A DNA stretch of 63,474 nucleotides, filler included, from Octopus bimaculoides (taxonomy: Eukaryota), in assembly GCF_001194135.2 (NCBI RefSeq). It is 6 parts of 6 records of this genome, joined end to end, with 100 filler letters (N's around TTAATTAATTAA, not from the genome) between each part and the next. Parts side by side here need not be neighbours in the genome. Positions count along the whole stretch, not along the records: positions 1 to 27,354 come from NC_068988.1; positions 27,455 to 40,789 come from NC_068987.1; 4 more parts are not named here. One strand, given 5' to 3'. The notes below the pieces were generated by a model that ran no database searches, was not told the origin of the DNA, and saw only the letters and a list, made by a program, of their open reading frames with translations. Position numbers and translations under genes: made by a program. Of this stretch, positions 2,931 through 35,355 are shown piece by piece; within the stretch, counting starts at the first letter, position 1; every line of letters starts with the position of its first letter.

Positions 2931-2987
2931 ACTGTAGGCGTATATGCCATATTTCGGTAGTTTCTGCCCCTTCATCATATATCCAGT
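2931..2987 (-). ncRNA. Degenerate type-I hammerhead ribozyme
   Basis: Minus strand reads ACTGGATAT-ATGATGA-AGGGGCAGAAACTACC-GAA-ATATGGCATAT-A-CGCCTACAGT. Core C3 is replaced by A. Helix III is identical to the copy at 3042-3113. Stem I pairs poorly. Confidence 0.6.
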
Positions 2988-3041
2988 AGCTATACACCAC
3001 TTTATATAGTAGATATTTAAGAAATGTGTTCGAAGGTGATT

Positions 3042-3113
3042 AATGGGTTAGATGGACGCTGATGAAGGGTCAACCCCTCCCCCGAAATATGGCATATACG
3101 TCCATTACCCATT
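3042..3113 (+). ncRNA. Type-I hammerhead ribozyme, intact core
   Basis: AATGGGT-TAG-ATGGACG|CTGATGA|A-GGG...CCC|GAA|ATAT-GGC-ATAT|A|CGTCCAT-T-ACCCATT. Stem I is 7+7 bp with a bulge, the core is CUGAUGA/GAAA, and predicted cleavage is AUA after 3098. Confidence 0.88.
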
Positions 3114-3663
3114 TTTTCCTCTTCGATCACATTGTTTGTTTACATCTGACGTCTCGTATGCGAAACGTAGCAACAAAAACCAGTGCTAGCTATAATTTCT
3201 ATAGAATATCTGTAGAGATAACCTTAACAAAGTAATGTAAAGTGCACTGCTAACGCAGTAGAACGCGGTATTGACTTATAAAAACGTTTAATATACTTTA
3301 TAGTATACGATGGTTGCATAACAAAATACCACGTACCTACAAGTCATCAATATATTTAATTTATTAATTTCACGGGCGCACGCACATACACACGTTTATG
3401 TATTCACATATATGTATAAATAAGCGCGTATATGTATACACACGCATGCATACACACACATACATACACACACATACATACACACACACACACACATACA
3501 TACACACACACATACATACACACACACATACATACACATACATCACTCTTTTAAGTTATCGCGCAGATTTTCTATAGAAATTAGAGCCAGTATCGAAAGT
3601 TACGACGTTTCGTATACGAATACGTCTACATAAGCTATGCGATCGAAAACAGGAAAGTAGACA

Positions 3664-3713
3664 ATGAATGTATATGCATATTTCAGGAGTAATTTGTCCT
3701 TCTTCAGCATCAT
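3664..3713 (-). ncRNA. Type-I hammerhead ribozyme, intact core
   Basis: Minus strand reads ATGATG|CTGAAGA|AGGA-CAAATTAC-TCCT|GAA|ATATGCATAT|A|CATTCAT. Helix III is a perfect palindrome and predicted cleavage is AUA at position 3671. Confidence 0.88.
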
Positions 3714-6024
3714 ATCTAATCCATTAACCATCCATGGACACATTGCTTAAATAAAAGGCCACTAAATTTATCGGTGTACCTCAAATGGATAGAACAATTT
3801 ACATATTAAACACACTCCTGGTAACGGGTACGTACATATTAATTGCTGATAAGAACACCATATTTCGTTTTGCAATCATATTATACAACCAGGTAATTTA
3901 AAGGTTTATAAGTCAATATTATATCCTACTTGTATTAGCAGTGCGATTCAATCACAGTCTTGATTTAGAAGCCTGGTAGTATATTATGGTTGCAAGGGTA
4001 GGAATCCTCGACCAACTTTTGTTCTCCAACATGCAGGCGCATATTTTTAGTAGTTCCATTCTCCTAGCTTTTGACAAATTCGCTGGAGTAGAATACTTCT
4101 CTCTGTATCCTCACCTTCATTTCCAAGTGAAACCAATAGAGACTTAACTCAAAATGAAGGTGTCTGCCATCAATCCTTTCAGCCTCGTTCCCCACACAAT
4201 CACTTTTACCATTGCCATTAGACATAGGATCACCGCCTGACTCACATTTTTGAAGGTGGATGGTGCGGGAATCCGTCCTACATGTCTCAAAAGTTGTTCG
4301 TCATAATTCATAAAGCAGCTATGCTTAGCCATTGCACGAGTGCGTGCAGTATAGTTTCGTCGCTCTGTGTGCATCTCGAAGAGTCACACCCGTCATCAAT
4401 TCCGTACCTACAGAGTTTATCTCAAACCAGTAATGCCCTAACAAAATTTTAAAAACCAGCTTACCGTACTATCGACATTTAGACAGCGTTTCTATATCAA
4501 AAGAAATGCCAAATTCGATAATAAAGTATTAACAACAGTTCAAAATGTCGGCGATATTCCATCGATATGGAATATCAAGTATACCAAGTTTATTATAAAA
4601 TATTTCTGTTGTCGTTCTTTAAATCTTTTCTGTATTGAATACTGTTATTTGTTTTGTTGTTTTACAAAGTACGAGCAAACATACTGACGAGCCAACTTTC
4701 ATGAGCATTTCAGAAATAAATATAGTGAAAGACGCGAATTAGAATTTGTGTGGATAATGTTGTCAAATGACTGAGATCGTGATTAATGGGTATCAATCAC
4801 GCTCATGATACTATTACATCTTATCAGCGGGTTATTATTATCTAAAAAGTTATTCCTCAAAGAGATCGTAATAAACGGCTACCATTGTATTTAAGTCTAA
4901 ATTTTTTAATAATCTAAATCTATACGGAGAAGAGCATATCAATGGATATTAGAAAACAAAATCAGTTTAATTAATTTAAGAACATTTAATCAATAACCTG
5001 AACAATAATAGAACGTGTTATTCACATACAGCAATAACACTGTTTTGCTGGCCCACCGTCCTGCTAATGTGTCCTCGATTCGAATTCGTTTAATTAACTT
5101 CTAAATAGATCTTACTAGGTACCATTCATTTGCCTCGATTTTTTTATTTGCGTGAAACCAAAACGACTTAAACATTTGTTGTGTGACACATAACCTAATT
5201 TGTGTGACACATAACCTAATTTGTTCGATCAATGAAAATTATACTTAAATTAGATATACCATATATACTCGTGTAACAGACGAATTTTTTAGACCATTTT
5301 TAAGGTCAAATTTATGGATCGACTATTACATGGATAGTACTTTTGAGGGGCTGAAATTCAAGCTAGAATCCGAAGTACCGTATCAGCAGCAGAAGCCCAA
5401 CAGATCTCTAAGCGAATAAAAAACAAAAACACAATGAATTACAGTAATATTACCAATTCTATGCATCGAAACACACGTCCTAGTAAATAACAAAACCCAT
5501 AAACAAGACCACGTAGCTCTTATAAATATTTACACTTTCTATTTTATCCATCAAACTTAACAGACTAGCTGAGCGAAATCAATTTATATCTCATAATTAT
5601 GTTATATTACTACCGGTAACATATCTACCCAGTACCGGCGTGCCGCTACCTACCGTAATGCGGTGCATACAACTTATACTACTTGGCGTGTTTCACATCA
5701 TATAACTCTTCAATAACGTTACACTATTTTCATATACATGGTTAAAGTCACACTCATCACAAGTATATTATGGCACAAGTGTATTAGTGGTGCATTTTTA
5801 TTTCTAACTAATTAAATGCAACTTAATGTTTTAAATACCGAAACTGATAAAGGAAGCAGAAGCTCAACACCACTTTCCACCACCAACAGTCTTCACCGAA
5901 AACGTTTTCTTCTTCGTGGCTGGATTAGAGACTACCGTACCAATTTCTTTTTTGCATTTTTATTTTTTATATATTCAGTGAAGCTTAAGGTCCAAAATAT
6001 TAAAAAATATCAAAATAATTAAGT

Positions 6025-6115
6025 CCTTTCTATCATAGGCACAAGGCCTAAAATTGGGGGGGGGGGCTGTCGATTAGATCGACTCCAGTACACAACAGGT
6101 ATTTTATTTATCGAA
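6025..6115 (-). mobile_element. SINE 3' fragment, same family as 43358-43514
   Basis: TCCTTTCTATCATAGGCACAAGGCC...GGGG...GTCGATTAGATCGACTCCAGT...GGTATTTTATTTATCGA matches blocks in the copies at 39000-39800 and 43358. Confidence 0.7.
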
Positions 6116-6319
6116 CAAAATAGTTAATAATGTCAATAAAAACCAATAAATTATCAAATTTTTATTTATGCAAACAAAAAGTGAAGTAGAAATTTACGGT
6201 AATACAGCTTTAAATTACAATTACAGTAGATGGTACATATTAAACATTTTACACGCAAAATTAAAATCTTAAAAAATTACACTGTCCATCATGTTCAGCA
6301 CTGAATAAAGCTTCATAAT

Positions 6320-33896: not shown

Positions 33897-34398
33897 TATC
33901 ATATCTTACTGTACATACTACGTGCAGACCCATAACTCATATCCATACTTAAAAATGGGTACCTCATATAAAATAGCGTTATCACTTTCTACTTATCTAT
34001 CTATTTACCTATCTATCTAGCGCTCTATATTCATCTACCTGTGCTATCTTTACATCCTTTGTGTGTCTTTTCACCATTTTATCTCTCGCCCTATCTCTCT
34101 CACACTCACTCTATTCCTAAACCTGGATTACTATGCATCTACTGAAACGTAATATATTTATTATCTCTTTTTGATGATAACTTCTGAAACCATAAACAGT
34201 ATTCCCTCTGCTGCGCATAGAGCCGGCACAGTTAAAATTATTTAACTTGGCGTTAATTATTTATCGACTAATCTCGGAGAAATTGCCTTAGGTTCATTAC
34301 AACGGATATGCGCAGTAACACCAAACATACACATCTATAGTCACACTAGTCACACATATATACATATCCATGTATATATATGTATGTATGTATATATG

Positions 34399-34429
<31 letters not shown>

Positions 34430-34582
34430 ATATGTATGCCTCTAACATGTGGCATCCGTCGCAGCTGTACAGGTAATGTCGATCTACACAAACATTTGAT
34501 CATTATAAACAAATCATCTATGTGGTTGTTCAGTAAGAAATTGTCTAACTCTCATACGTCGTCTAACGGGAGGAGAGTCCAC

Positions 34583-34631
<49 letters not shown>

Positions 34632-34794
34632 TCAGAATTATAATTTCTGGAGTATCTTTCACCAACAAGTTATATTCATTCGAGTATAGAACATATCTCG
34701 ACACAGAAATATCGTATATATGTAGTAGACATACATAATACGTACATAACTCCATATATAAATACATGCATACATACATACATACATACATACA

Positions 34795-34825
<31 letters not shown>

Positions 34826-34980
34826 CTATATATATAATATATTTGATTAAAAAATTCCAAAAAGGGATAAAACTCTTTTACAAGAATTTTATCAAGAAAC
34901 CAGTGTGTAAAAAAATTCATAAGGGAAATTTCTATTCCCAAGAATATAATTATACGTTTATATTTATATAAGGGGCATTA

Positions 34981-35355
34981 TTACAAAATAATAATGCCAC
35001 ACAGTGGACTTCTCCGAATAAACACATTTTTAGTACCGAATGCGAGGAAACACAACCAACAGAAGAAAACCTTTCTTTTAAATAACTCAACTATGTATCG
35101 ACCGATTTCGCGATTACTAGAATGAATCTAGACTCCGCTCATCAGCATGGTATTGTTTATGAAAAACATATACAAATAAACAGAATTCTCACCTTACCAA
35201 AAACGAACACTCTCCGTAAAGCAAAGGGAATAAAGTTTATCTGTATAAATCTTATTTAAAAGAAAGGTTTTCTTCTGTTGGTTGTGTTTCCTCGCATTCG
35301 GTCCTAAAACGTGTTTATTTTGAGAAGTCCACTGTGTGGCATTATTATTTTGTAA
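34981..35355. mobile_element. Foldback element with about 105-bp inverted arms (34981-35085, 35252-35355) and an internal hammerhead
   Basis: The arms are more than 90% identical reverse complements. No TSD is evident. Confidence 0.92.
35090..35151 (-). ncRNA. Type-I hammerhead ribozyme, fully canonical core
   Basis: ACCATG|CTGATGA|GCG-GAGT-CTAGA-TTCAT-TCTAG-TAAT-CGC|GAA|ATCG-GT-CGAT|A|CATAGT. It has a G10.1-C11.1 pair, stem I 5/6 paired, and predicted cleavage AUA at 35096. Confidence 0.9.

Follow-up and report, generated by a model that had tools for sequence, protein, structure and literature searches.

Four long inverted repeats carrying hammerhead ribozyme motifs, here called E1 to E4, occur in a stretch of 63,474 nt from the genome of Octopus bimaculoides (NCBI RefSeq assembly GCF_001194135.2; the whole stretch is referred to as the window), and raise the question of what kind of unit such a foldback represents. 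An earlier note on this DNA had read them as one recurring architecture, i.e., as non-autonomous palindromic retroelements derived from Penelope-like elements (PLEs). Here we argue, with good confidence, for another reading, in which E3 and E4 are head-to-head pairs of abundant hammerhead-bearing repeat ends, each pair likely made once by a PLE reverse transcriptase (RT)-endonuclease, E2 likely has the same origin, and E1 likely consists of two separate copies. The foldbacks are likely by-products of ordinary PLE-type ends and not a new mobile hairpin system.

Hammerhead-bearing foldbacks in the window

The window DNA is AT-rich and of animal type, with numerous microsatellites and 7598 N letters. 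All four inverted repeats lie at the positions reported earlier, and their alignment scores (183, 194, 280 and 201 for E1, E2, E3 and E4) are far above the maxima reached in 100 shuffles per element (52, 46, 61 and 43), with arm identities of 69%, 84%, 84% and 95%, respectively. The elements appear essentially unrelated to each other in sequence, as had been claimed, with 11 of the 12 cross-element comparisons reached by at least 19 of 200 shuffles and that of E2 with E3 by 2 of 200. A similarity between the 3' ends of E3 and E4 was dropped (its score was reached by 29 of 500 shuffles), and a motif apparently common to E2, E3 and the repeat family with a core at 17643, on the downstream side of the cut, lacked significance, as 37, 17 and 123 of 300 shuffles reached its scores. 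No open reading frame (ORF) of at least 100 amino acids is listed within the foldback proper of E1, E2, E3 or E4, in agreement with the absence of encoded proteins noted before, and self-comparison of the window revealed no direct repeat of any of them.

Hammerhead-like type-I motifs with a palindromic or near-palindromic helix III were confirmed in all four foldbacks, and their assignment to the PLE/retrozyme type, and with it a link to PLEs, is upheld. A strict type-I descriptor, composed after the motifs had been seen, finds five cores in the window, compared to a mean of 0.125 and a maximum of 1 in 40 dinucleotide shuffles. Three of these lie inside foldbacks (3059, plus strand; 3707 and 35145, minus strand) and two outside (17643 and 27175, plus strand). 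Most of the foldback motifs are decayed: three of seven pass the strict descriptor, the left motif of E2 passes only with one core mismatch (a setting without shuffle control), and the right motif of E2 and both of E3 fail at both settings. The Rfam scan that the earlier note had called for gave 128 matches at E<=5, with no hammerhead among them.

The motifs face inward (tail to tail) in E1 and outward (head to head) in E2 and E3, and E4 holds one motif in its loop. Based on motif orientation and alignment, an adjacent, inverted, 5'-truncated copy in head-to-head position is present in E2, E3 and E4 and absent from E1. The four foldbacks are more than one architecture, and the single recurring layout proposed earlier was not sustained.

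E3, E4 and their repeat families

The copy structure of E3 and E4 was studied by aligning public sequencing runs to both elements, with E1 and E2 outside this comparison. For E3, three DNA runs were used as contigs (X1, X6 and X14) together with one RNA run (X21) at a likeness threshold of 80; for E4, two DNA runs (as contigs) and two RNA runs were used, and about 6% of each RNA run was read. The contigs are short, their summed depth is no copy number, and joints at a likeness below 95 often arise from repeats. The E3 joints are the best 15 of 23 and the E4 pieces the best 16 of 4658.

E4 comprises the following features:

34827..34842, plus strand: 16-bp direct repeat, left copy, AT-only, candidate target-site duplication (TSD) of E4, from window comparison
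34843..35253, minus strand: long copy with a 138-nt 3' extension (34843-34980), arm and loop motif, its left end placed by the direct repeat
35252..35356, plus strand: short inverted copy, 104 nt, 100 of 105 columns identical, with loose ends at 35351 and 35253
35357..35372, plus strand: 16-bp direct repeat, right copy, from window comparison

The inverted repeat itself (34981-35085 and 35252-35355) is identical in 100 of 105 columns. The 16-bp repeat occurs at these two places only in the window and frames a unit of 514 bp (approximately 34843-35356). The loop motif (core 35145-35139, helix III TCGGTCGA) matches the strict descriptor and has its predicted cut after 35096; the short copy begins 11 nt downstream of this cut and overlaps the long copy by 2 nt.

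The E4 family is represented by 1961 and 2658 contigs in the two DNA runs. Summed depth peaks at 34860-34979 (2.4e5-7.2e5), to the left of the foldback, where it exceeds that of the arms, and loose ends at 35351 (5 and 10 contigs) continue as the left flank of E4. The arm ends are therefore not element ends, which rules out terminal inverted repeats (TIRs). At the turn, depth falls to 345 and 672 at 35264 versus 10998 and 27816 at 35248, and eight reads of one RNA run pass 35253 with other sequence, which places the 2-nt overlap at the turn. All six E4 joints listed are orientation switches away from the turn of this locus. The letters preceding 35315-35324, a zone in which the second copy begins in most of these joints, end in CAG and are splice-acceptor-like; the zone may correspond to a preferred 5' end or to a short subfamily.

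In the family majority, helix I of the E4 motif is perfect (35149). Many RNA reads have a perfect helix III palindrome (35101), and many differ from the locus at 35148 and 35093, changes that would be compensatory if linked in the same read. The two RNA runs yielded 263 and 187 reads, in both mate directions, none at least 99% identical to the locus and with no pile-up of ends. An exact 28-nt pattern from the E4 extension was found at 0 loci in metagenome contigs. Directly right of E4 (35373-35700) stands the end of another very abundant repeat (depth >1e5 at 35400-35439) with a terminal short tandem motif, which we take to be LINE-like (long interspersed element).

E3 is composed of two copies that adjoin each other:

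17905..18159, minus strand: left copy with 3' tail (approximately 17905-17955), read depth 558-3641 over 17900-17959, left boundary approximate
18160..18362, plus strand: right copy with its core at 18221-18227; the first pair of helix I and the palindrome of helix III are broken at this locus but intact in the family majority

Its inverted repeat (17956-18158 and 18166-18362) matches in 172 of 205 columns. The left motif has its core at 18105-18099, CAGCTG as helix III and a helix I of only 2 bp at this locus. In the right motif, the family majority restores the helix I pair (18220 A>T, 17-21 contigs per run) and the helix III palindrome (18282 T>A, 31-33). This repeat family is clearly abundant, with 373-437 contigs per DNA run and a summed depth of up to 1.1e4-1.4e4, compared to 41-49 for contigs identical to the locus. 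It extends approximately 50 nt left of 17956, so the left copy bears a tail that the right copy lacks, and loose ends at 18356 run into this tail sequence. A 10-bp repeat around E3 (17925 and 18360) was rejected as a TSD, since in each run 18-27 contigs have family sequence across 17924.

Depth over the E3 turn (18160-18179) drops to 110, 149 and 14, versus 298-1195 in the flanking bins, and loose ends at 18159 share one common continuation without counterpart in the window (9 contigs in X1, 10 in X14 and 5 RNA reads in X21). Among the 15 joints, 12 are orientation switches, nine of which are head-to-head skips from the left to the right arm; each is found in one contig, their 12 coordinate pairs are all distinct, and none lies at 18159/18160. 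Of the remaining joints, two are deletions and one is a tail effect. The RNA run gave 37 reads for E3, with the same lack of reads at least 99% identical, both mate directions and no pile-up of ends. Copies related to E3 and E4 are transcribed at a low level. A small foldback without a core (18373-18440), beside E3, is part of a different multi-copy family, with a depth of 1100-3800 and its own loose ends at 18373.

The turns of E3 and E4 are private, i.e., the copies listed elsewhere do not share them. The repeats are located where the earlier note had placed them, but their boundaries are not element ends in E3 and E4, whose families run on in the reads; these families extend beyond both turn and outer end, the turns of other copies lie at different positions, and the idea of the foldback as the mobile unit failed in both elements.

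E2, E1 and the neighbouring repeats

E2 has a layout resembling that of E3:

14103..14245, minus strand: left copy, core 14218-14212, helix III CGCGCG, predicted cut after 14135, one-mismatch descriptor match
14246..14258: turn of 13 nt, repeating 10 nt of 14232-14241
14259..14401, plus strand: right copy, core decayed (14286-14292), GAAA at 14358-14361, helix III CGCGTG, failing both descriptor settings

Its inverted repeat (14103-14245 and 14259-14401) matches in 120 of 143 columns, and the left motif reads GAAG in place of the GAAA box and has a helix II region of 64 nt. Because its layout and arm divergence are those of E3, E2 is by analogy likely the same kind of head-to-head stub as E3 and E4. 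The helix II regions of E2 and E3 (14147-14210, 14295-14357, 18042-18098 and 18228-18276) are 49-64 nt long and closed by 4-5 bp.

E1 differs from these three in its organization:

2931..2977, minus strand: short inverted hammerhead remnant whose core starts without C3, adjoining the left E1 copy (33 of 41 columns match 3060-3100, score 48 versus a shuffle maximum of 27)
2980..3355, plus strand: left copy, segment A (2980-3239) followed by B (3226-3355), retrozyme-like unit, strict descriptor match
3376..3543: (CA)/(TACA) microsatellite separating the copies
3539..3961, minus strand: right copy, circularly permuted, B (3961-3834) followed by A (3791-3539), with identities of 69% for A and 67% for B
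3870..3995: small inverted duplication at the outer (5') end of the right copy (blastn self-match, E 5.9e-4)

The inverted repeat (2980-3239 and 3539-3791) matches in 183 of 266 columns, and the right copy reaches 170 nt past the boundary given in the earlier note. Segment B matches the minus strand at 3961-3834 with 67% identity over 131 columns and a score of 104.5 (shuffle maximum 78). In the right copy, this counterpart lies upstream of A and beyond the foldback, and it is the best of 2091 window tiles, scoring 100 compared to 57.5 for the top unrelated tile. A mirror duplication would not produce this order of B and A, and two circularly permuted copies of approximately 400 nt would; E1 is thus probably made of two separate retrozyme-like copies of this kind facing a microsatellite, as read from sequence alone. 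Both copies bear a short inverted fragment at their outer end. We lean towards a non-autonomous family, rather than the end of a coding PLE, for E1.

The left motif of E1, with its core at 3059-3065, is an intact type-I hammerhead predicted to cut after 3098, and its long helix I contains an internal loop. The right one has its core at 3707-3701 and its predicted cut after 3671. The left stretch 2980-3370 has a folding z of -5.4; the right copy folds no better than shuffles (z +0.9). Beside E1, a small foldback without a hammerhead core (2788-2923) showed no homology to E1 parts above shuffles in six comparisons.

Protein-coding remnants of PLE type occur near three of the foldbacks, as reported earlier:

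251..1656, minus strand: broken PLE-like RT fragment, neighbour of E1, with ends not homologous to E1 (Pfam RVT_1, E 2.6e-7)
14439..15930, plus strand: broken RT and GIY-YIG-like fragment with a C-x4-C-x2-C linker, Neptune-like by motif reading of its translations, no Pfam match above cut-off
17191..17355, plus strand: probable C-terminus of a PLE GIY-YIG endonuclease, from its translation

The linker assignment of the second fragment rests on PMC8557442. One of six neighbouring protein fragments has a Pfam match above cut-off (RVT_1), and the PLE label of the others derives from motif reading and an Atlas lead: the top Atlas matches of 17191-17355 are unnamed (0.95-0.96), and the nearest named cluster, GIY-YIG (15% at 0.88), serves as a lead only. 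None of these fragments is detectably homologous to the adjoining foldback, as all 10 comparisons of foldbacks with the three PLE-like neighbours were reached by at least 53 of 300 shuffles (with an N gap at approximately 16309-16682 by E2). E2 was accordingly rejected as a pseudo-long terminal repeat (pLTR) of its neighbour at 14439, having no homology to the 3' region of the latter, part of which is hidden by this gap.

Other repeats in the window are related to these features. A 333-codon stop-free frame (1805-2806, plus strand) stands back to back with the RT at 251-1656 and is possibly the inverted 5' part of a PLE, and more broken PLE-like RT/GIY-YIG fragments lie at 50070-51634 and 52298-52607. 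A fifth short head-to-head foldback (12954-13048) matches in 38 of 43 columns and is interrupted by an N gap; it is homologous to 17568-17620, which lies in the 3' region following the probable GIY-YIG end. Two copies (88%) of a hammerhead-bearing repeat end, 17607-17866 and 11865-12120, have cores at 17643 (plus) and 12084 (minus), both end in a TA/TACA microsatellite, and are not folded back. A solo strict type-I hammerhead (27175-27227) has no inverted partner found in the window. Three repeat copies (16685-17084, 18736-18996 and 28273-28635; 70-79%) carry a first half-core (18893, plus; 28328, minus) with no second box near, and resemble half-cores mentioned in PMC8557442, which places them 35-50 nt apart in Naiads. 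Further foldbacks are an old one at 37326-37789 (63% over 174 columns), with a decayed hammerhead-like loop stretch on the minus strand recognized by eye, and a young perfect one at 59053-59295, whose left arm is tandemly duplicated and in which no hammerhead core was seen. A decayed tandem array occupies 22168-24425.

Origin of the foldbacks

The account that we favour builds on multi-copy families extending past the turn and the outer end, variable junctions, one-sided tails, the repeat flanking E4 and the permutation of E1, all of which are demonstrated here. We propose that a PLE enzyme would nick AT-rich or microsatellite DNA and copy an RNA from near its 3' end, that synthesis would halt early, and that the new DNA end would fold back on a microhomology of two to a few nucleotides and copy itself over 100-200 nt. 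Repair opening this hairpin would leave two copies, a long one that keeps the loop and the tail and a short one in mirror orientation. The E4 geometry fits this fold-back order. The hammerhead would travel as a pLTR passenger, constrained in the families and decaying in these copies, and the stubs themselves are probably dead ends. Whether the E2-E4 families are ends of coding PLEs or short non-autonomous units is about evenly balanced.

Several observations weigh against this account. No foldback is tied to a coding PLE among the three window neighbours compared, and no convincing TSD was found for E1, E2 or E3; the 16-bp repeat around E4, which modifies the earlier statement that none of the elements has a clear TSD, is AT-only. 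A fall in depth to 94 at 18238-18240 in X1 indicates that local divergence also causes dips, so a dip by itself is weak evidence, and the loose end at 18159, more telling than the dip, is not among the six listed for X6. The E3 loop matches either copy equally (four of six letters each), so the fold-back order is not tested by E3. For E4, the continuation past the turn is listed in a single RNA run, five of the six listed family joints begin the second copy within 35315-35324 and are not fully random, and the one-sided extension of 138 nt exceeds the 30-40 nt in print. The read evidence covers two of the four elements (E3 and E4), through short contigs and best rows only, and PMC3846280 favours self-priming on an antisense template instead.

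A more specific version of the same origin, which we advance tentatively, holds that the arms are abundant ORF-less hammerhead families inserted in trans by Neptune-type enzymes, with the mirror copy made by snap-back of the complementary DNA from preferred starts, and E2 possibly a fixed two-arm unit. Such families could be retrozyme monomers or PLE-driven units resembling short interspersed elements, some with an unusually long helix II.

Two independent insertions of one family into the same target, or later recombination, could also give rise to inverted pairs, and this explanation is preferred for E1, with its 69% arms and permuted order. The families are very abundant and AT-rich or microsatellite sites attract nested insertions; yet the copies of E2-E4 lie 0-13 nt apart and are 84-95% alike, a single direct repeat encloses the whole of E4, and other copies of the E3 and E4 families also show head-to-head joints, which makes this origin unlikely for these three.

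We regard as slightly less likely again, and improbable, the earlier proposal that each foldback is a palindromic retroelement family copied as a two-arm unit via a self-cleaved hairpin RNA. The arms are multi-copy, there is low-level transcription of related copies (37, 263 and 187 RNA reads), fold-back formation recurs in both the E3 and E4 families (with E2 outside the read comparison), and most listed E4-family joints share a narrow start zone of the second copy. However, depth collapses at both turns, the families pass the turns and outer ends, the listed joints differ, and no turn common to many copies was found for E3 or E4. The RNA data, with no read at least 99% identical and no end pile-up, argue weakly in the same direction, given the fraction of each run that was read. 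Release of a self-cleaved hairpin from either strand also fared poorly: each strand has at most one sense motif, which gives one cut and no unit-length release, and E4 has its motif on one strand only. In equilibrium predictions, which do not cover dimeric or protein-assisted folding, helix I has a pairing probability of at most 0.003 in all four whole foldbacks; folded in isolation, it reaches 0.97-1.0 in the left motif of E1 and at most 0.11 in the tested motifs of E2-E4. The foldback hairpin is thus predicted to sequester the hammerhead.

Assembly artefacts are a very improbable source of the hairpins: N letters are frequent in the window (7598) and none of the listed contigs spans the turn of E3 or of E4, but the arms differ at 5-31% of columns, with indels, and contigs from independent runs agree with the window at 17880-18021 and 18297-18450, with 0 other letters, over stretches that include the outer parts of the two E3 arms. 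Least credible of all is that the foldbacks are miniature inverted-repeat transposable elements (MITEs) of DNA transposons, with arms as TIRs and incidental hammerhead-like sequence, as, despite the TA-like letters and 95% likeness of the E4 arms taken alone, no fixed TIR ends common to copies were found for E3 or E4, the E4 family extends beyond both arm ends with its peak depth outside the supposed TIR, E3 likewise, and motif positions are constrained in the families.

Published work describes closely similar structures. According to PMC8557442, PLE insertions carry a 5'-truncated copy in inverted orientation at their 5' end and a tail of 30-40 bp, and are biased towards microsatellites, and PMC3846280 reports palindromes at mostly head-to-head junctions together with tails, 8-10-bp TSDs and solo pLTRs; PMC8969392 treats inverted pLTRs as a routine curation feature, and PMC11167929 describes AT-rich cleavage, internal initiation and an HHR (hammerhead ribozyme) that is dispensable for insertion in vitro. 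Our foldbacks share with the insertion units of endonuclease-containing PLEs, as far as these sources describe them, the head-to-head junction with a palindrome or small overlap, one shorter copy, a one-sided extension, the AT-rich or microsatellite context and a TSD (a candidate one, at E4, among ours) in some insertions only. They also hold a type-I hammerhead in the terminal repeat, by sequence and predicted fold, and truncation and junction vary in the E3 (12 of 15 joints listed) and E4 (6 of 6 listed) families. They differ in having no ORF between the copies and no coding parent found among the window neighbours, in the length of the extension (approximately 50 nt in E3, and longer in E4, versus 30-40 nt), and in the candidate TSD of E4 (16 bp versus 8-10 bp).

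The motifs themselves resemble the minimal PLE hammerheads of PMC4209133 (2014), which describes dual motifs on opposite strands 100-700 bp apart, probably in truncated PLEs and with low activity in vitro. Shared traits are an intact or decayed core, an unpaired base after position 9 with G10.1-C11.1 (E1 and E2), a helix I of 4-5 bp, a palindromic helix III, dual opposite-strand motifs at this spacing, and the occurrence of most copies outside full PLEs. In contrast to the 7-8-bp helix described there, helix II of E2 and E3 spans 49-64 nt and is closed by 4-5 bp. E1 is closer to the non-LTR retrozymes, whose units, solo monomers and pLTR origin are treated in PMC7229834 and bioRxiv 10.64898/2026.07.22.740005, in its non-coding low-GC unit of approximately 400 nt, compared to some 150-400 nt for such retrozymes, its type-I motif with a long helix I and its permuted copies; unlike these, for which tandem arrays are known, it has none in this window. 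A fixed inverted retrozyme or octopus hammerhead foldbacks were not found by title or abstract start; Repbase, Dfam and supplements, outside this scope, may catalogue them.

The layout has therefore already been described in animals, and E2-E4 add members to the inverted-pLTR kind of PLE insertion, while E1 adds one probable retrozyme family; among the motifs described here, the left one of E1 is the most promising for actual cleavage. Short hammerhead foldbacks in a PLE-rich genome are in our reading likely insertion by-products, and their annotation as MITEs or as a new class of mobile hairpins is unwarranted. The junction geometry of E4, with a long copy bearing loop and tail, a 2-nt overlap and clustered starts, could be used to test snap-back models of second-strand synthesis. 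If insertion in trans by Neptune-type enzymes were to prove true, the many junctions of this genome would constitute a natural record of how PLEs form their inverted ends, an open step of the PLE cycle.

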